UHGV virus genome: UHGV-0170870
Source: a virus
Direction: 5' to 3' (one strand)
Length of the DNA: 63,018 bases
Positions 14,044-26,885 of the stretch are shown piece after piece (the first letter of the stretch is position 1; every line of letters begins with the position of its first letter). Below the pieces are notes generated by a model that saw only the letters and a list, made by a program, of their open reading frames with translations, did not search any database and was not told the DNA's origin. The position numbers were made by a program, and so were the translations under genes.

Positions 14044-14075
14044 AGCCGCCCTTCGGGGCGGCTTTTTCGTATGCG
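14044..14075 (+). terminator. intrinsic terminator
   Basis: AGCCGCCC-TTCG-GGGCGGCT hairpin followed by TTTTTCG. Confidence 0.6.
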
Positions 14076-14170: not shown

Positions 14171-14196
14171 TTGCCAACCCGAAAGGACAAACGCCA

Positions 14197-14457
14197 ATGA
14201 CGACATGCCGCTTCTGCGAAAAGTGGAAAGGCCCGATGGTTAAATACGGGACGCGCCACTACGCTCACCCCCGCTGCTATTTGGAGAACGGAAAGCGCCT
14301 CGCCGATCTTCACGCGTGGCAGATCGAAGAGTTTCCCGTAAAGGTGCTCTCCGACTTCGGTCATCTCGACATCAAAACCCTGAAGTTCACCGATCCGGAC
14401 ATTCAGGCCAAGATGGACGGCGTCGAAAGCCGCCCCTCCATGATAATCTTCGATTAA
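14197..14457 (+). CDS. hypothetical zinc-ribbon-like protein
   Basis: CRFC...HPRC motifs; start at internal ATG 14197 preceded by GAAAGGACAAACGCCA; ORF track extends to 14158. Confidence 0.4.
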   Translation: MTTCRFCEKWKGPMVKYGTRHYAHPRCYLENGKRLADLHAWQIEEFPVKVLSDFGHLDIKTLKFTDPDIQAKMDGVESRPSMIIFD

Positions 14458-19465: not shown

Positions 19466-20344
19466 TACACAGACAAGAGCCCCTCATGCCTCTGACCATA
19501 AAGGCGTTGCCGTAGACCACGGCCGCGTGCGTCACGTGTGTTCAGGGCCATCCACTATGCGCTAGGTCAGCGCCGTGTCGCGGATGGGCGCTATTCGGGG
19601 AATAGCAGGCAAGGTGAGGGCACCCGCCATATGAAGGTCGGTGCGGCCTCGCCATCCCCGTGCAATTCGATACCCCCTCTGAACGACTTTTCTCAGAACG
19701 AGAAAACGAAAATTCGCAGAACGAAAAACCAAAAATTCACGTTCTGCGAAACGAGCTGAGTGGCATGGATCAAGGGCGAGAGAACTGCGCTCACAGGGAT
19801 CATCAGCTCATACCCCAAACGAGCTGTGCATCACCGTTATGAACGATGCGCTTCACGATCCATGCCGCTCACCCAAACAGCACGCGTTGAGGCGCGTGGA
19901 GCCAAGCGATTGGCTCGCCAGGATACGAGCAGACGGGGGTCATGCTCTCCTGGCTCTGTGCGACCCGCGACGATGAGTAGATACGGCGCTGGCGGGAGCG
20001 ACGTGTCGAATACCCCGTCGCGGGTCGCAACCCGTCCGCTCGCGCGAGCACGCGCACGCACGCGCGGAAAAATTTTTTTTCGAGAGCATGTTGGTTTTGG
20101 AGATCGCCAAAATCGCAGTTGGGCGGATTGATGACAGTGCGATCTCGTCAGTGCTCAAAAGCCACAATCGCCGAGGTATGCGCGGCCACTCGGCCGAAAA
20201 CGCGGTGTGGCATTTCGATAAAAGTGCAACATGCCTCTAGGATCGCATTAGGCGCGCGCCCATGCGCTCAATCCGTCGCCCGGTATTTCGTACCATTGGG
20301 GCGGGTTGAGCGAATGAGCGGCGCGGAATTGGACGAAAAAAAAA

Positions 20345-20408
20345 CGCCGCTAAGGATCAACTCCCTAGCGGCGTTTTCGGCTTAAACCCTAGCGTCGCAA
20401 CGCTAGGG
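20345..20408. terminator. bidirectional terminator region (two hairpins)
   Basis: A9 then CGCCGCTA...TAGCGGCG stem then TTTT; second hairpin CCCTAGCG-TCGCAA-CGCTAGGG; sits between convergent transcription units. Confidence 0.55.
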
Positions 20409-20513
20409 CAAAGCTATGGCGGTTCGTCGCACGAATCGCCCGCGCCGTTATCGGCGCATGGCAAGCAAGCGAGGGCAAAGCACGTCATAGCAAAATCGCG
20501 GTTTGTCATCTCG

Positions 20514-20696
20514 TTAGGCCTTCTTCGCTTCTACCGCGCCAGTAATGCGCTTGTCAGAGTGATATCGCGACTCGCCATGCGTCATAACGTCAACCGGCTG
20601 TAGCGCGAGCGTTGAAACACGATTGGCAATCTCGCGCAAACCGATTGCGCCGATATGGTCGGCCAATCGGCCATCAATGTAAACAGTGGGATTCAT
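20514..20696 (-). CDS. hypothetical small protein
   Basis: 60-aa ORF directly downstream of hammerhead motif copy 1 and an AAAGG RBS. Confidence 0.35.
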   Translation of the reverse strand: MNPTVYIDGRLADHIGAIGLREIANRVSTLALQPVDVMTHGESRYHSDKRITGAVEAKKA

Positions 20697-20717
20697 GGCG
20701 TTAGTACCTTTCGACTT

Positions 20718-20775
20718 GGACTCATCAGTGGCCGCGTAACGGCCAGACCGCGCTACCTGGCGCGCGGTTTCGTCC
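20718..20775 (-). ncRNA. type II hammerhead ribozyme motif, copy 1
   Basis: RNA 5' GGAC-GAAA-[CCGCGC GCCAGGUA GCGCGG]-UC/UGGCCG UUACG CGGCCA-CUGAUGA-GUCC: all core nucleotides, GUC cleavage triplet, stems I and III as hairpins, stem II closed by the ends. Confidence 0.8.
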
Positions 20776-21047
20776 TAGTAGTAGCAATGGCGGAAAACGT
20801 AATTCCCGTTGTCGTCGCCCGTGAGATAGCCTCTAACGCGACAACCCGCGACGCTACAGACAGCCGGAATGGAAAAATACGTGTCGGGCTCCCCCGTGAC
20901 GTAAACAGTGCGGCGCATGTCGCCCGCCATGTTATCGAGTCGGCAGTTCTCGACCTTCGCCAATGTGGGGCCACCCATCCACACCGCAAACCACGCGGTT
21001 GATCCATCGGGCATATGTTCCGATTTGTCGGCGCGATACTTTTGCAT
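20775..21047 (-). CDS. hypothetical protein
   Basis: 90-aa ORF in small-gene cassette. Confidence 0.4.
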   Translation of the reverse strand: MQKYRADKSEHMPDGSTAWFAVWMGGPTLAKVENCRLDNMAGDMRRTVYVTGEPDTYFSIPAVCSVAGCRVRGYLTGDDNGNYVFRHCYY

Positions 21048-21050
21048 TGG

Positions 21051-21293
21051 TCAATCCCTCTCGATTAGCGCGGTATAGGTTCGGCAATCGCTCGCGAGAA
21101 CGCCGAACTGCGCCGCGTCATGCCAGCGCATGAATCCCGCGTCGTCGCAGCTAACGATTGAACCGCCTAACCACGCGGCGAACTTGTCCGCTTGTGCAAT
21201 TTCGGAATCTTCCATTCCGGAAGCGTCGCCATTGATGAAATACGACGCCCAATAGCTAGGCGCGGTCCCCGTGACAGTGTCGAAGGTTGCCAT
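21051..21293 (-). CDS. hypothetical protein
   Basis: Start at internal ATG 21293 preceded by GAAGGG; ORF track extends to 21326. Confidence 0.4.
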   Translation of the reverse strand: MATFDTVTGTAPSYWASYFINGDASGMEDSEIAQADKFAAWLGGSIVSCDDAGFMRWHDAAQFGVLASDCRTYTALIERD

Positions 21294-21297
21294 TGGC

Positions 21298-21690
21298 TCA
21301 ACCCTTCGCTTTCTTGACGCGCGCATAGTCGCCCGCGCTCTTAAAGTATGTGCCGTGATAGGTTGCGCCGTTGATCGCGCGAACGGTTACCGGGACACGC
21401 TTTCCGCCAAAGTTGTCGCGGTACTCTCGACCAAACGACGCGGAGCCAAGCCTTTCCCCGTTCCACGTTGTGGCGGTATTGGTCTTTGCGTTGATATAGA
21501 GGAAATACCGTTCCGGTATGTCCCGCATAAACTCGAATAGCTCGACCTGGCCGCGCTCGTCATTGGTCGGCGGGTTGATATGGGGCGGCAGTTCGGAGGG
21601 ATGATAGCTATTCGTTTTGCGTGCTTTCATCCACGCGTGCAAAGCCTCATCCCTGGCGCGGATGTCGGCGGCTTGTTCTGGCGTTAGCAT
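21298..21690 (-). CDS. hypothetical protein
   Basis: 130-aa ORF directly downstream of hammerhead motif copy 2. Confidence 0.45.
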   Translation of the reverse strand: MLTPEQAADIRARDEALHAWMKARKTNSYHPSELPPHINPPTNDERGQVELFEFMRDIPERYFLYINAKTNTATTWNGERLGSASFGREYRDNFGGKRVPVTVRAINGATYHGTYFKSAGDYARVKKAKG

Positions 21691-21710
21691 TGGCGTTAGT
21701 ACCTTTCGTT

Positions 21711-21763
21711 GGACTCATCAGTGGCCGCGTAACGGCCAGACCGCGCTAGGCGCGGTTTCGTCC
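21711..21763 (-). ncRNA. type II hammerhead ribozyme motif, copy 2
   Basis: Same core as copy 1; stem III loop is CUA instead of GCCAGGUA, a loop-size change that preserves pairing. Confidence 0.8.
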
Positions 21764-22023
21764 TAGCGTTGCGATTCCAAGAATTTCGCTATGGTGTACG
21801 GTTCAACCGTCACTTTGACGTGGAGGCTGTAATCGTCATCAGCCCAAACCGTTGCGCAGTATCCGTAGATTGAGAGATAGCCCGGAGCAGTCATGTTACT
21901 TTCAACGTGACGCTTGATTACCTCCACGCCTCTATCAACAGTGAAAGCGAAGCTAGGATTGAGACGAGTCAAGAGGTCTGCGACCTCGCGCACATTGCTG
22001 TGATTCCAATTGAGTGCAGGCAT
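21763..22023 (-). CDS. hypothetical protein
   Basis: 86-aa ORF preceded by GAAAGGAAAAC. Confidence 0.4.
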   Translation of the reverse strand: MPALNWNHSNVREVADLLTRLNPSFAFTVDRGVEVIKRHVESNMTAPGYLSIYGYCATVWADDDYSLHVKVTVEPYTIAKFLESQR

Positions 22024-22045
22024 TGGCGTGTTTTCCTTTCTAGGG

Positions 22046-22483
22046 TTAGCGGTGGTAAATCCAACCGCGATAGACTTCGCAGTAAGCTTCGCTGAACGTC
22101 TTAGCGGCCTTGTGGAGCGCGTCGCCCGCGTCGCCTAAACCACGGTCCCAATAGCCAACGCCGTGGCCTTGACGCGAAAACCAAAAGTCATGGCCCGCCT
22201 GCTCTTCGGAGTAGCCATGCGACTCGGCCAAGCGGTCGAGCCATTGCCGGACGAAACAGCCATCCGGCATGATGAAACCGAGAAACGAGTCGCAATCGCT
22301 CGCAATGTCGCGGATTGCTTCGCGCGTGAGTCTCTCGACTCCCAAATCATTCAACCGCGACTCGTTGTCGTCGCCCGTGTCGCCATTGGTGAAAAACACG
22401 GCTTCTACGTATGCCTTCGCGAACGTTGAAAGCTTGTCGTAAGCACGCGGCGCGGGGGTATCGTTCAAGACAAATTCAGGCAT
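22046..22483 (-). CDS. hypothetical protein
   Basis: Start at internal ATG 22483 (MPEFVLND) preceded by GGAAGG; ORF track extends to 22582. Confidence 0.45.
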   Translation of the reverse strand: MPEFVLNDTPAPRAYDKLSTFAKAYVEAVFFTNGDTGDDNESRLNDLGVERLTREAIRDIASDCDSFLGFIMPDGCFVRQWLDRLAESHGYSEEQAGHDFWFSRQGHGVGYWDRGLGDAGDALHKAAKTFSEAYCEVYRGWIYHR

Positions 22484-22487
22484 TGGC

Positions 22488-22898
22488 TCAACCTTCCAAC
22501 TTGGCGCGAAGGTCGGCCATTTCGTTTGCGTGGTTACGTTCTGCGCGCTCGATTGCCGCGCGAGTGATCGCCTTAGCATCAAGCGTGTTCAAGCAATCCC
22601 ACATATCTTTAGTGGCTTGCTCTGATGTGCGGCGCGCGTGTTCTAGATCGCAACGCGAAACCACAGTTCCGAACACGTCAAATATGACGTAGCGAAAGCC
22701 TCGCTTGCGATTCTCAAAGTCGAGTGCATCGCTTGTGACGATTGCGAAAAGCAAACCGTTGTCGACGACTCGCGCGGAGATGACGCGCGACTTGTGGAAT
22801 CGCAAATTATCGTCATCCACGTAATGTGTGCGACCGCAAAGGTTGCGTTGCGCGTTGGTCTTTGGATCATGCGATTCAGTGCGGAAAAGCGTAGTCAT
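22488..22898 (-). CDS. hypothetical protein
   Basis: Start at internal ATG 22898 (MTTLFRTE) directly downstream of hammerhead motif copy 3; ORF track extends to 22991 through the ribozyme. Confidence 0.45.
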   Translation of the reverse strand: MTTLFRTESHDPKTNAQRNLCGRTHYVDDDNLRFHKSRVISARVVDNGLLFAIVTSDALDFENRKRGFRYVIFDVFGTVVSRCDLEHARRTSEQATKDMWDCLNTLDAKAITRAAIERAERNHANEMADLRAKLEG

Positions 22899-22919
22899 GG
22901 CGTTGTTTCCTTTCGACTT

Positions 22920-22972
22920 GGACTCATCAGTGGCCGCGTGACGGCCAGACCGCGCTAGGCGCGGTTTCGTCC
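22920..22972 (-). ncRNA. type II hammerhead ribozyme motif, copy 3
   Basis: Same core; stem I loop UCACG instead of UUACG; followed by RBS and ATG 22898. Confidence 0.8.
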
Positions 22973-23251
22973 TATTTGTCAGGTGACACATACGACACGC
23001 TAGGCGTGCGAAAGCCTTTCACGTTGTGCGAAGTGTAGGAGTCGCGTCGGTTCATTTCACAACCGATAGCGGCAAAGGCGATAACGATACCGATTGAAAC
23101 TGCGACGCAAACCGCGTCGCGCAGTGCTGCAAGGTATGCGCGGACCATTAGCGTGCCCTCGCGATGCAGAACGAAAAGCAAAACCGGCCAATGCGGATAA
23201 ACCGCAAGCCGCCGACTCGTTTTGTGCTGAAATTGATTGCGTTCATGGTGT

Positions 23252-23509
23252 TCACGCTACCGGACGGGATTGGTCGGCGGAAACATTGCACGAAACGACG
23301 CGGTAGAAGTCTCGGCTGTAGCGCGGGCGATCATTTCCGCGCACCGAAGAAAAGGCGAGGCGACGATACATTGCGTCGAAAGCTTCGCTAGGGTCGCGTA
23401 GCCAAAGGCGGGCGATCCAATCGCACCCATTGAGCGTGCAACGAAAGCGAATGTCATAGGCCTTGCGACGCGGTGGCGTTGGCATTGGGCGAAAATTCAA
23501 TTCGGTCAT
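23252..23509 (-). CDS. hypothetical protein
   Basis: Start at internal ATG 23509 preceded by GAAAGGACAAACGCCA; first gene of leftward small-gene cassette. Confidence 0.4.
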   Translation of the reverse strand: MTELNFRPMPTPPRRKAYDIRFRCTLNGCDWIARLWLRDPSEAFDAMYRRLAFSSVRGNDRPRYSRDFYRVVSCNVSADQSRPVA

Positions 23510-24018
23510 TGGCGTTTGTCCTTTCGAGCGTGTCGCCCCCGCGTGTGCGGTGGCAGGTGTGTAAGGTAGCACACCTAACGCATACAGCAAGCGTCTAGTT
23601 CGCCCCTAATGCCTGTATTCGTTGGCTTTCTTGCGTGTTGCGCGCTCGCTTAGCGCGCTCCGACATGCCACGCGCGCCAGCGTCGCGCCTTACGAGGCAT
23701 GCAATGCGCGCATGCAAAGCAAGCCGCGTGCCACGCTCCGCGCTATCGCGCTGTAATAGAGCGTGATGAGCAAGAAACACCGCGATATCAGAGACTTGCT
23801 CGCGTTTGTAACAAACCGTGATCTCGGCCGCGCCGACCCACCCCCTGGGGTGTGGGTCCCTGTCGCCACACCCCCTCCCACCGGGGGCAGTCGCCGCCCC
23901 CGAAAGTCGGCAACGTTTTAGCGAATTTGCTCACTCTTGATCGCACGGGTCGCCCCCGCGAGCTATGCGCCTCACGCGTGAGAAACGTCACCTAACACCC
24001 CCTTTGGAGCCCCCGAAC

Positions 24019-24402
24019 ATGGCAAACACGTCGCATTCGCCTCGTCGCCGGGGCGGTGTTGACGCTTGCGTCAACGAACTACCGAAGACCATCAAGATCG
24101 GTGCCTACGATTGGACGATCTGCATCCGAGATGGAGCGGACGACAAGTACGGTCAAGCCGATTTCGAGTACAGCCAGATCAACATCTGGCCGAGAAACCT
24201 AACGAGCCCCGGTCACGGCGTCGGAATAGTGCTGCATGAATGCCTGCACGTCATATTCGACAACCACGGGCTCGGCAGACTGAAGCGGGATAAAGAGGAT
24301 CGTGAAGAGCAGATCGTTCTCGGCTTCGAGGCGGGCCTGGTCTCGCTGTTCCGCGACAATCCGAAGCTGCTCGTCTGGATGAGGCGGTGGCTTCATGGCT
24401 GA
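24019..24402 (+). CDS. hypothetical protein with HExxH zinc-metallopeptidase-like motif
   Basis: VLHECLHVIF motif; ATG 24019 with GGAG RBS; immediately upstream of terminase small subunit; ORF track starts at 23965. Confidence 0.45.
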   Translation: MANTSHSPRRRGGVDACVNELPKTIKIGAYDWTICIRDGADDKYGQADFEYSQINIWPRNLTSPGHGVGIVLHECLHVIFDNHGLGRLKRDKEDREEQIVLGFEAGLVSLFRDNPKLLVWMRRWLHG

Positions 24403-25036
24403 ACAGTACCCGCGAAAGCTCCCCGCAAAGCAGCTCGCGATACTGTTTGGTGTGAGTGAACAACGAATCTCGCAGCTCAAGCGCAAAGGGAAGCTAAACC
24501 CCGACAGCGCGAACCTCTACGACGTGCAAGAGGCCAAGCAGTTGCGCGGTTTCCAGATGAGCGAGCACGGCGTACGCGTCGTCGCACAAACATACGGCAA
24601 CGGCACCGGCAAGATCGCGCCGCCGAAGGTGACGCCGATGAATGCCGACGTGGTTCTCTCCCCCGAGGATCGCGAGGCACTCGGTATCGAGCCCAATGAG
24701 CAGATCGCGCCGTCGCCAAACAGTCACTTCGTGGCGGCAAGCCGCATCACGGAGCTGCGCGAGCAGAAGATCAAGGCCGAGATCGAGCGTATCGAGACGC
24801 GGGCCAAGAGAGAACGGGGCGAGCTGGTCGAAAGAGCGAAGGTGCAATCGTCGTTCATTGAGGCCGGAGCGCGGATCGCGGCGATCCTTCAGAACTTGCC
24901 TGCCGAGATCGCTTCGATCTTTGCGGACCCCGACAAGAAAGCCGAGGTCCGGCTGAAGGTGCAAACGCGCGTCGATCAGGCGCAGCACACGCTCTACACG
25001 TCAATGCGCGACTACGGAGAAGATGATGCTGGCTGA
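24395..25036 (+). CDS. terminase small subunit (DNA-binding)
   Basis: N-terminal HTH LAILFGVSEQRISQLKRKG; position directly upstream of terminase large subunit. Confidence 0.55.
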   Translation: MAEQYPRKLPAKQLAILFGVSEQRISQLKRKGKLNPDSANLYDVQEAKQLRGFQMSEHGVRVVAQTYGNGTGKIAPPKVTPMNADVVLSPEDREALGIEPNEQIAPSPNSHFVAASRITELREQKIKAEIERIETRAKRERGELVERAKVQSSFIEAGARIAAILQNLPAEIASIFADPDKKAEVRLKVQTRVDQAQHTLYTSMRDYGEDDAG

Positions 25037-26885
25037 CCCATTATTCGCAGGGCTGGCCGAAGGATTGAAGCCGAAGCCTCGGCTGAAGCTGTCTGAGTGG
25101 GCGGAAGCGAACCTAGTGCTGCCGCCTGAACGATCCGCGAGCCCCGGCCCATATCGCATCGGCGACGCGGTCTTCCAACGCGGCATGATGGACGCGATCA
25201 CCGATCCCGACAATGAGGACATCGTCTTCATCACGTCGTCCCAGGTCGGCAAGACGACCATCCTTGTCGCGGCGCAAGGCTACTACTGCGAGGCGGAGCC
25301 GTGCGCGCAGCTCTCGGCGTGGCCTACGCAAGACCTGGCCGACAAGTACCAAGAAGAGTCGTTCGATACCACGGTGAGAGATTCGCCGAAGTGGAGAGCG
25401 GCGATGACTGGCAGCACCGAATATAAGGGCGGCCAGATCAATTTCGTCGGCGCGAACACGCCGAACAAGCTCGCGATGCGGCCCATCCGTGTCGTTACGG
25501 GCGACGAGATCGACCGATGGCCCCTCAGCTCGTCGAAGGAAGGTTCGCCGGTCGAACTCGCCAAGAAGCGACGCACGACATACCACAACCGCAAAGGCCT
25601 GTGGGTGTCGACGCCGGTTCACGAAGACACCAGCGTCATCGTCCAGCTCTTCAAAGAGACGCGGCAACACTACTTCCTCGTTACCTGCCCCGATTGCTCC
25701 GCCAAGCAAGTGCTGAAGTGGGACAACATCGTCTACAAGAAGGGGCAGGAGGAAGACGCGCTCTATCACTGCGACGACTGCGGTGCGCTGTGGACCGAGA
25801 TGACAAAGCGCCGTCTCGTTCGCGAGGGCGAATGGCATCAAGTCGGCACCGTGATCGGCACGCAGAAGGATGGCACGCCGATCCGACTGGCGACCCCGTT
25901 CAAATGCTTCAAGGTAGACGCTGGCGTGACGCCTGCGCGCGAGAAGATCGGTTTCTGGATCAACGAGCTGTATTCGCCGTGGGTCTCGATGCGAGAGATC
26001 GCGAAGGCCTGGTCAGACTCGGAGGGCAACCCCGAGAAAGAACAGACCTTCTACAACACGCGTCTCGGTCTTCCGTATCGCGGCGACATTTCGAGCTTCG
26101 CGGACCCTGAGAACTTGAAGTCGAGGCGTGAGAAGTATGATCCTGAGATCGTGCCGAAGCGCGCGGCGCTGCTCACAGCGGCCGTCGACGTGCAGGACGA
26201 CCGCCTCGAAGTGCTGGTCGTGGCCTGGGGCAAGGGCGATGAGTGCTGGCTTCTGAAGCATCACGTCATCCAGCTCGGCCCGAACACGGACGAAGCGTGG
26301 GACGAACTCGCGAAGTTCCTCGAAAGCGGCTTCAAGCACGAAGGCGCGGCAGGGGAGACGCTCGGCATCTTCTCCGCCACTATCGACTCGGGCTCGGGCG
26401 CGCACACGCAGAAGGTCTACGACTTCAGCAACAAATGGCTGTTGGTCGGACGACGCTGGTACGCGCACAAGGGCGTGCCCGGCGACAAGAAGCCAGTCTG
26501 GATTAAGTCGGAGCAGCGCTTCAAGGACAAGACGAAGCTGTTTCTCGTCGGCACCTACGACGCGAAGGCGACCATCTACACGCGATACGCAAACGCGAAG
26601 GTGGGGCCTGGCTACGTGCATATCCATGAGGGCATCTCGGACGACAAGATCGACCAGATGACCGCTGAGCGCGCGGAGACGGACTACAAAGATGGTTTCC
26701 CCGTTCGAACGTGGACGAAGCCTCGGCATCGTCGAAACGAGATGCTCGATCTCATGGTCTACAACTACGCGGTTCGGTGTTCGGTGAACATCGACATGGA
26801 TCATTGGATCAAGCGGCTCAACACCCCCAAAGAACAACAGCCGAAGCAGCTCAACGCTGCCGACATCGGCAAGCTGTTCAAATAG
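25023..26885 (+). CDS. terminase large subunit (lambda GpA-like)
   Basis: 620 aa; P-loop FITSSQVGKTT; position and size match GpA-type terminases. Confidence 0.8.
   Translation: MMLADPLFAGLAEGLKPKPRLKLSEWAEANLVLPPERSASPGPYRIGDAVFQRGMMDAITDPDNEDIVFITSSQVGKTTILVAAQGYYCEAEPCAQLSAWPTQDLADKYQEESFDTTVRDSPKWRAAMTGSTEYKGGQINFVGANTPNKLAMRPIRVVTGDEIDRWPLSSSKEGSPVELAKKRRTTYHNRKGLWVSTPVHEDTSVIVQLFKETRQHYFLVTCPDCSAKQVLKWDNIVYKKGQEEDALYHCDDCGALWTEMTKRRLVREGEWHQVGTVIGTQKDGTPIRLATPFKCFKVDAGVTPAREKIGFWINELYSPWVSMREIAKAWSDSEGNPEKEQTFYNTRLGLPYRGDISSFADPENLKSRREKYDPEIVPKRAALLTAAVDVQDDRLEVLVVAWGKGDECWLLKHHVIQLGPNTDEAWDELAKFLESGFKHEGAAGETLGIFSATIDSGSGAHTQKVYDFSNKWLLVGRRWYAHKGVPGDKKPVWIKSEQRFKDKTKLFLVGTYDAKATIYTRYANAKVGPGYVHIHEGISDDKIDQMTAERAETDYKDGFPVRTWTKPRHRRNEMLDLMVYNYAVRCSVNIDMDHWIKRLNTPKEQQPKQLNAADIGKLFK

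Follow-up and report, generated by a model that had tools for sequence, protein, structure and literature searches.

Why should consecutive small genes of a phage begin with almost the same letters? The question is raised by positions 20514–23509 of the UHGV virus genome UHGV-0170870, a DNA of 63,018 nucleotides (nt) that was analyzed over its full length and is called the window here. An earlier note on this DNA had described the region as a lower-GC cassette of eight leftward open reading frames (ORFs), lying between a terminator and the head module, with near-identical translation-initiation regions and, ahead of three of the ORFs, a hammerhead motif. Hammerheads were indeed found ahead of three of them (g3, g6 and g9; gene names and coordinates are given in Table 1), and the start regions of these three genes turned out to be parts of the hammerhead repeats themselves. 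In our view the cassette, carried by a temperate Bradyrhizobium phage, is probably an accessory operon with horizontally exchanged genes and with a transcript that is cut by ribozymes.

Hammerhead Units in the Cassette

One repeat of about 80–85 nt occurs in three copies, 90–95% identical to one another, and the 3′ tails of these copies form the leaders of g3, g6 and g9. At the RNA level the repeat reads UAG-GAC GAA A-(stem III)-U C/(stem I) CUGAUGA GUCC AA(GU)C GAAAGG ... AUG, the slash marking the predicted cleavage site. Its core, GGAC-GAA-A...U-C/...CUGAUGA-GUCC with the cleavage triplet GUC, is present in all copies, and all three contain the full type II core (C3 U4 G5 A6 N7 G8 A9, G12 A13 A14, an A15.1-U16.1 pair and an H17 that is not G). 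The stems follow the type II order, with stems I and III closed by loops and formed by seven pairs each and stem II open and formed by four. The three copies differ in loops and linkers only, never in the core or the stems. Each unit fills the whole intercistronic gap from the upstream UAG stop to the next AUG, and in all three the G of this UAG is the first base of stem II; within the cassette, UAG serves as a stop only at the three hammerhead junctions. The units are spaced 1209 and 993 nt apart and bracket g3–g5 and g6–g8. The hammerhead three-way junction is what minimum-energy folding predicts for units 1 and 3.

Three kinds of models were compared with these sites. The Rfam type II model (RF02276) was the best family match at all three under a relaxed threshold, with 27.5, 30.1 and 28.8 bits for units 1, 2 and 3 and a curated cut-off of 37. 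Because the scores are below the cut-off, default Rfam annotation misses the units: scans at the gathering threshold gave no ribozyme in the window or in 43 related loci, and the hammerheads emerged only at relaxed thresholds. All three units matched a structural descriptor (stems of 4/7/7 pairs in unit 1), which gave 13 real hits vs. 0.15 per 503 kb of shuffled sequence, all 13 being intergenic and on the coding strand. Finally, R1, a covariance model built from 26 hammerheads of other contigs and none from the window, scored units 1, 2 and 3 at 74.9 (E 1e-20), 66.5 and 69.9 bits with a next-best match in the window of 9.2 bits, a test that is not fully independent because 19 of the 26 sequences had been fetched with a pattern based on the tail sequence in the window itself. 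With 9.2 bits as the best other score of R1, we reject a fourth, degenerate hammerhead, whether before g1, before g5 or at the two leader copies outside the cassette (Table 1).

Relatives of the Hammerhead Unit

Relatives were found through a pattern scan of metagenome contigs together with the structural descriptor. The layout of stop, hammerhead, (C)AAC(C)GAAAGG and AUG recurs in 33 distinct hammerheads from many contigs, 26 of which came from the metagenome scan. Each of the 33 is followed by a purine-rich motif resembling a ribosome-binding site and, 4–17 nt beyond this motif, by a candidate start (ATG, GTG or TTG); in three units the ORF from the candidate start extends over only 2–7 codons or off the contig end. 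The upstream stop codon overlaps the first base of the hammerhead or lies within a few bases of it in most relatives, and in a few it does not. Stem II of the relatives is GGAC/GUCC or GGGC/GCCC, their tail is (C)AAC(C)GAAAGG, and their stem I has seven pairs (six in a few) and is usually closed by U-G around a 3-nt loop. The GAAAGG tail is also present in seven of the 12 hammerheads of these contigs that needed no match to the search pattern. Across the 17 related contigs that were scanned with Rfam, two hammerheads reach the Rfam cut-off vs. 24 distinct descriptor hits; default Rfam thresholds overlook most members of this hammerhead subfamily.

Some of the relatives form arrays, with four units in 1.2 kb (contig L057, 1195 nt), four in about 1.5 kb (L063 and L065; up to 1.6 kb) and three in L095. 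Since most array units stand after a stop and before GAAAGG and a start, single genes of 58–163 aa (amino acids) are individually bracketed in them. Within the arrays of L057, L063 and L065 the stems have diverged with compensatory changes. When seven hammerheads from five sources were compared, 100% of the cells pair and 10 of 17 pairs are changed on both sides, shifted controls reaching 24–43%, and the figure of 100% is inflated because the descriptor requires pairing. Two more contigs, L083 and L075, are also listed among the metagenome contigs with arrays of hammerhead units.

Not every match was retained. Eight metagenome hits of the descriptor (L058, L062, L067, L076, L078, L084, L085 and L089) were dropped, as they have a very large "loop" inside coding sequence, and the genome-scan matches L001, L003 and L005 were rejected as chance matches within coding sequences. 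An exact-pattern scan of IMG/VR for the 3′ half of the hammerhead gave no hits, and a pattern scan of one genome per species, covering 185,579 species, found the unit only in copies of the same phage.

Hammerheads were also seen in the neighborhood of g3 homologs, where they lie on the coding strand in six further lineages out of about 38. They are of type II in L009, L030, L031, L041 and L049 and of type I, directly upstream of the g3 homolog, in L038/L039. Since the hammerhead is of type I there and of type II here, two ribozyme permutations are found at the same position relative to the g3 family. In L038, L039, L043 and L044 the type I hammerhead lies 26 nt 5′ of the start of the g3 homolog (e.g., L039 5875–5924). 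No other ribozyme classes were found near g3 homologs in Rfam scans of the related loci. Genes resembling g4 and g8 are also present in hammerhead-bearing contigs.

Start Regions and Leader

The sequence GAAAGG-N4-6-ACGCC(A)ATG precedes the ORFs starting at 23509, 22898, 22023, 21690 and 20696. The shared start context that the earlier note had ascribed to all eight ORFs is thus present in five (g1, g3, g5, g6 and g9), and g4, g7 and g8 share only CCAATG. The latter three begin at a short coupled junction, GGNTGA(N)CCAATG, which occurs twice as GGTTGAGCCAATG (g4 and g7) and once as GGATTGACCAATG (g8), and in which the last bases of the preceding gene supply both the purine-rich run and the TGA stop.

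The leader motif has seven matches in the window compared with 0.16 expected, and none of 100 shuffles reached seven. It is not exclusive to the cassette, as two copies stand on the plus strand at the gene starts 7106 and 14197. Each of these two genes is the first after an intergenic region, and the second is preceded by a GC-rich hairpin and T-run at ~14045–14070, read by eye. The near-identical initiation regions are therefore not eight independent sites, three of them being tails of hammerhead units and two more leader copies lying outside the cassette. Of the seven leaders, we read three as ribozyme tails and the other four as copies, free of ribozymes, of the leader that is standard for first cistrons in this phage. 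The two outside copies have no hammerhead; they include CAACC(C) ahead of GAAAGG, as many hammerhead tails do.

GAAAGG is complementary to CCUUUC, a sequence that most bacteria have close to the 3′ end of their 16S rRNA. In the hammerhead units the distance from GAAAGG to the next AUG is 10–11 nt, a spacing that suits a putative ribosome-binding site.

Cassette Genes and Borders

All eight leftward ORFs of 60–145 aa that had been noted earlier are present on the minus strand. Two more were detected, one of 58 aa with a transmembrane segment (g2) and a doubtful one of 32 aa (g1b), for a total of nine to ten. The lower GC content also held when calculated: it is 0.559 in the cassette (20514–23509, minus strand) vs. 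0.619 in the whole window, and in sliding 3-kb stretches over the whole window (mean 0.619, sd 0.017) the minimum of 0.558 is found at start 20101, making the cassette the lowest stretch. GC at third codon positions (GC3) is 0.57–0.69 in the cassette genes and 0.80–0.83 in the PrimPol, TerL, portal and long tail genes. Both the low GC and the GC3 values fit the acquisition of these genes from elsewhere.

Table 1. Features of the cassette and of related sites in the window (strand and coordinates as in the window)
Feature	Coordinates	Strand	Description
Leader copy	7090-7108	+	CAACCGAAAGGACTAAACGCCATG; heads a 405-aa DUF932 gene, outside the cassette
Leader copy	14181-14199	+	CAACCCGAAAGGACAAACGCCAATG; heads an 86-aa gene, outside the cassette
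Terminator	20333-20414	-	Double-hairpin intrinsic terminator at the end of the operon; 17-pair stem and T-run (20340-20378), inverted repeat I9
g9	20514-20696	-	60 aa; last cistron
Unit 3	20697-20775	-	Hammerhead 20718-20775 and tail AAGUCGAAAGGUACUAACGCC; predicted cleavage after C20746
g8	20775-21047	-	90 aa; coupled start GGATTGACCAATG; ends in UAG overlapping hammerhead 3
g7	21051-21293	-	80 aa; DUF6926-like; coupled start GGTTGAGCCAATG
g6	21298-21690	-	130 aa
Unit 2	21691-21763	-	Hammerhead 21711-21763 and tail AACGAAAGGUACUAACGCCA; predicted cleavage after C21739
g5	21763-22023	-	86 aa; leader GAAAGGAAAACACGCCAATG without hammerhead; ends in UAG overlapping hammerhead 2
g4	22046-22483	-	145 aa; coupled start GGTTGAGCCAATG; phrog_1915
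g3	22488-22898	-	136 aa; conserved family
Unit 1	22899-22972	-	Hammerhead 22920-22972 and tail AAGUCGAAAGGAAACAACGCC; predicted cleavage after C22948
g2	22972-23148	-	58 aa; predicted small membrane protein; ends in UAG overlapping hammerhead 1
g1b	23148-23246	-	32 aa; doubtful; stop overlaps g2 start (TAATG); no homolog found
g1	23252-23509	-	85 aa; first cistron; leader GAAAGGACAAACGCCAATG
Divergent region	23591-23964	.	Intergenic, g1 leftward and packaging genes rightward; ~370 nt, no convincing ORF

Judged by its homologs, the gene content is mosaic, with relatives of g3, g4, g6, g7 and g8 in Bradyrhizobium prophages and other phages. The g3 family comprises >500 clusters at 60–82% identity with 21 invariant residues and no annotation, and it is a conserved phage protein worth characterizing. 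In two Bradyrhizobium prophages the g3 homolog occupies the same place, as the first of a run of small genes divergent from the Nu1, gpA terminase and portal genes, and a metagenomic phage has a similar layout around its g3 homolog. In two T7-like contigs the homolog is found among small genes 5′ of an integrase, followed in one of them by a T7-type RNA polymerase. The genes 3′ of g3 homologs vary: g4 homologs were found there in L008, L009 and L028, homologs of g6 and g8 in L010, a g7 homolog (77% identical) directly after the g3 homolog in L012, and g8 homologs in L020 and L023, the g8 homologs of L010, L020 and L023 being 61–73% identical.

The remaining proteins gave matches of different kinds. 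Gene g4 matches phrog_1915, a family with no known function (E 9.4e-27, residues 15–133 on profile positions 6–128 of 141), and has homologs in phages of Rhodobacter, Pectobacterium, Cronobacter and others. The product of g7 scores 26.9 bits with PF21977 (DUF6926), for which the cut-off is 27, and is 73–77% identical to DUF6926 domains in longer proteins that carry a precomputed PF21977 match. Residues 15–84 of g1 are 75% identical to the C-terminal part of two metagenomic proteins of 214–236 aa; like g1, the g6, g7 and g8 proteins match single regions of longer proteins elsewhere. No homologs were found for g2, g5 and g9, which is weak evidence because the concatenated protein queries that were used returned long proteins only. 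Profile searches matched no cassette protein to a known function or to any anti-defense, defense or toxin family, and when the cassette was compared at the nucleotide level with 50,697 phage records, the only matches were short ones inside g4.

Two short DNA repeats lie within the genes. The one at 21225–21243 and 22379–22397 is in the coding regions of g7 and g4 and encodes F-x-NGD; the other, at 20807–20823 and 22363–22379 in g8 and g4, consists of 17 identical bases and encodes TGDDN. Paralogy of g4 and g7 was considered and rejected, only a short N-terminal motif being common to both (E 0.059).

The flanks of the cassette are as described before, with a hairpin and T-run on the left and packaging genes on the right. 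The latter run rightward from 23965 and include a gpA-type TerL (25023–26885) and a lambda-type portal (27122–28822). The cassette promoter is presumed, from the layout only, to lie in the divergent region. A 145-aa ORF at 23965–24402 on the plus strand, just 5′ of a small-terminase-like gene, has a HExxH motif (LHECLHV), which suggests a small zinc-metalloprotease-like protein, and no Pfam match.

On the left, the terminator at the cassette end was the only convincing one on the minus strand in a terminator scan that also lists an 8-pair hairpin at 21245–21263 within g7 and that yielded no more sites than shuffles. The terminator resembles ctRNA_pGA1 (41.4 bits, E 5e-6 in a 3.8-kb search); with a score under the family cut-off of 45, it is probably a structural look-alike, and kinship was rejected. 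A ParA-like gene lies 900 nt from the terminator, and between the two, at 19500–20330, are ~830 nt without a convincing ORF. This stretch holds several perfect or near-perfect inverted repeats (19757/19857 and 19959/20016) as well as direct repeats of GCAGAACGAAAAAC at 19693 and 19716, of which a third copy is found at 23166. It could be a partition site or an origin.

The Phage and Its Host

The rest of the window is that of a temperate phage, with genes for a PrimPol/helicase, a family A DNA polymerase, an SNF2 helicase, a DUF2800 nuclease, an integrase and a ParA-like protein. No relative of its TerL exceeded 37% identity. Identical copies of the window's proteins were found in Bradyrhizobium viridifuturi (on a 7.5-Mb contig), in a Bradyrhizobium metagenome-assembled genome (MAG) and in Burkholderia MAGs. 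They are also found on short partial contigs labeled E. coli, Klebsiella, Lacticaseibacillus, Haemophilus, Acinetobacter, Stenotrophomonas, Pseudomonas, Mycobacterium and Aspergillus fumigatus, and the phage itself (99.8–100% identical) is present in assemblies labeled Streptomyces iakyrus (a 63,072-bp contig), S. xylophagus and Phycicoccus jejuensis, in an Eggerthellaceae MAG and in a JGI metagenome (L002, L004, L006, L007 and L092). The spread of the proteins and of the phage over such unrelated labels marks the window as a real phage of Bradyrhizobium, one carried along as a sequencing contaminant. The records under unrelated organism labels bear the signature of a contaminant and are mislabeled, and this contaminant phage is present in many public assemblies.

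One of these assemblies differs from the window. In the S. xylophagus contig (L007, 1993–2120), a hybrid unit with a loop III like that of unit 2 and a tail like that of unit 3 joins g9 straight to the 3′ end of g5 (compare 20693–20778 and 21691–21815 of the window). The same contig also lacks 90 bp of the window (20033–20122).

Proposed Expression and Alternative Explanations

In the model that we favor, one leftward RNA would run from the divergent region by the packaging genes to the terminator at ~20340. Three type II hammerheads would cut this RNA as it is made, after C22948, C21739 and C20746, and four messages would result: g1–g2, g3–g5 (1209 nt), g6–g8 (993 nt) and g9. Going by hammerhead chemistry, each released message should begin with a 5′-hydroxyl, the 7-bp hairpin of stem I and the same unstructured leader, and each upstream message should end in the GC-rich hairpin of stem III with a 2′,3′-cyclic phosphate. 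With message ends fixed in this way, the stability and the translation start of each block would be separate from those of its neighbors. The messages made by the ribozymes would receive the same leader as the promoter-proximal genes, i.e., those at 7106 and 14197 and g1, and within a block the genes would be translationally coupled through the short GGNTGA(N)CCAATG junctions. As for the proteins, our best guess is a role in host interaction or counter-defense.

Several observations weigh against this model, in addition to the limits given above for R1 and for the pairing count. Self-cleavage at the three sites is a prediction, all RF02276 scores are under the curated cut-off, stem II has only four pairs, and the minimum-energy fold of unit 2, in a context of 100 nt, is an alternative structure. 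A pseudoknot between loop I and the tail is unsupported for this hammerhead subfamily: the loop of stem I has 3 nt, and the mean longest loop-tail helix is 3.82 pairs vs. 3.82 in the permuted control, with 1116 of 2000 permutations reaching the observed value; another type of contact is possible. Gene g5 has the leader with neither a ribozyme nor a known 5′ end. A sigma-70 consensus scan gave no promoter in the divergent region, a consensus that may not suit the host, and since no promoter was found, the single transcript is something that we infer.

The explanation that survives best beside this model is compatible with it. The cassette may serve anti-defense or host take-over, its small proteins inhibiting restriction, CRISPR or other defenses or redirecting the host, with the ribozymes serving only their expression; we regard this as a serious possibility, though one that we would not expect to prevail. 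Directly behind sister units in other contigs stand a gene with an ArdC-N domain (28 bits, Pfam cut-off 22.6) and a weak ArdA-like gene (19.7 bits, cut-off 27), most others being unknown, and hammerheads stand on both sides of ardA in Agrobacterium, while one stands ahead of it in Legionella (PMC3088659). The low GC, mosaic content and small proteins of the cassette point in the same direction, as does the presence of g3 homologs among small genes in the early region of the T7-like contigs. However, none of the cassette proteins matches an anti-defense, defense or toxin family as described above, and g3 is unusually conserved, unlike typical anti-defense genes, which evolve fast.

It is less probable, and on the whole unlikely, that the units act mainly as DNA, i.e., as short linkers whose homology lets related phages exchange blocks of genes. 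Promoter/stem-loop cassettes act as comparable linkers in T4-type phages. The near identity of the three copies between unrelated flanking genes agrees with such a role, and so does the variable gene content behind g3. The hybrid unit of the S. xylophagus contig, which would delete g6–g8, may likewise be a real product of recombination between units; however, the contig ends 50 nt beyond the repeat, as an assembly break at a repeat would, and either origin would explain the junction. The species-wide pattern scan, which found the unit only in copies of the same phage, speaks against such a role. So do the diverged array copies, whose compensatory stem changes point to selection on RNA structure and not on DNA identity.

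We find it very improbable that the hammerheads are inactive relics or a selfish repeat, with look-alike starts that arose through a recent intergenic duplication and have no role in expression. The scores under the Rfam cut-off, the missing tertiary pseudoknot and the lack of covariation among the three copies of the window would be expected of a relic. In contrast, the differences among these copies are confined to loops and linkers, diverged relatives retain the core and all stems through compensatory changes, and in most relatives the unit still follows a stop codon by no more than a few bases and precedes a start codon. Hardly credible is the circularization of the segments g3–g5 and g6–g8 (e.g., by RtcB) into circular mRNAs in the manner of retrozyme or viroid-like RNAs: by established hammerhead chemistry the cleavage ends, a 5′-hydroxyl and a 2′,3′-cyclic phosphate, are RtcB substrates, and identical end units could re-form a hammerhead and bring the ends together, but only a 4-bp stem II would hold them, and Perreault et al. 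looked in such arrays for products that had been spliced or circularized, without finding any (PMC3088659).

The model of a ribozyme-cut operon can be extended beyond this phage. The relatives may represent a widespread type II subfamily that lacks the pseudoknot and has a conserved GUCC-(C)AAC(C)-GAAAGG tail, forming a self-contained "stop, cleave, start" unit; we put this forward tentatively and as somewhat doubtful. If it were true, the upstream stop in stem II and the ribosome-binding site in the tail would physically link cleavage, termination and initiation. Phages would then use arrays of the unit as natural insulators that provide every accessory gene or block with a standard leader and a stability of its own, and in this Bradyrhizobium phage every message, whether from a transcription start or from cleavage, would begin alike.

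A review of 2019 still called the biological role of bacterial and phage hammerheads unresolved (PMC6765202). The cassette offers a compact and well-defined example, with three near-identical units and exact predicted cleavage sites. The occurrence of the leader with and without a ribozyme provides a natural internal control, and B. viridifuturi is a named, cultivable species with identical proteins. The locus could be used to ask whether ribozyme cleavage sets the mRNA stability and translation of accessory phage genes.

Comparison With Known Systems

RiboJ is a synthetic hammerhead insulator that is placed between a promoter and a ribosome-binding site and gives a fixed 5′ end. As with RiboJ, the hammerheads of the cassette stand directly 5′ of a putative ribosome-binding site, and the downstream gene would receive a constant leader. 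Unlike RiboJ, they are natural, of type II and located between cistrons, they have no extra hairpin that exposes the site, and their insulating effect is a presumed one. Lambda-type morons carry their own promoter and terminator and have a deviant base composition. The cassette resembles morons and other accessory islands in its low GC, its place between modules, its transcription against its neighbors, its strong terminator and its mosaic content. It differs from morons in having several genes that are divided by ribozymes, and in that the sigma-70 consensus scan showed no promoter.

The cassette hammerheads agree with the consensus of the Rfam Hammerhead_II family (RF02276) in CUGAUGA, GAAA and the GUC triplet, in how the type II stems are ordered and in the A-rich AAAG tail that comes after stem II. 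However, they have a far shorter loop I than the model, and their scores are under 37 bits. Activity in cells is known for three type II hammerheads of Desulfovibrio (PMC8782182).

The closest precedent is the work of Perreault et al. (2011), in which clustered hammerheads were found to flank prophage genes, three such arrangements cleaved in vitro and the Agrobacterium one also did so in vivo (PMC3088659). The likenesses to these clusters, such as the triple hammerhead around ardA of Agrobacterium tumefaciens, are extensive: a few kb of phage or prophage DNA hold several hammerheads on the same strand, they stand between small genes whose identity varies by phage, and the proposed role is the same, namely the cutting of a polycistronic RNA into messages of gene or block length. 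There are also differences. In most type II hammerheads a pseudoknot is formed between loop I and the tail, which is needed for fast cleavage at 0.5 mM Mg2+ (PMC3088659), whereas the cassette units, unlike most of the type II examples of 2011, have a stem I loop of 3 nt and no sign of this contact. Cleavage was observed for three of the 2011 arrangements and is predicted for the cassette. The cassette units span exactly from stop to start with the candidate ribosome-binding site in a conserved tail, which sets them apart from the clusters as described in 2011. The words Shine-Dalgarno, ribosome binding, stop codon and translation do not occur in the text of PMC3088659, where the stop-to-start span, a ribosome-binding site in the tail and the lack of a pseudoknot are not discussed; the reuse of the leader without a ribozyme was not found described there either. 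The cassette arrangement thus belongs to the clustered prophage hammerheads of 2011, and its new details are refinements of that arrangement, not a new kind of system.

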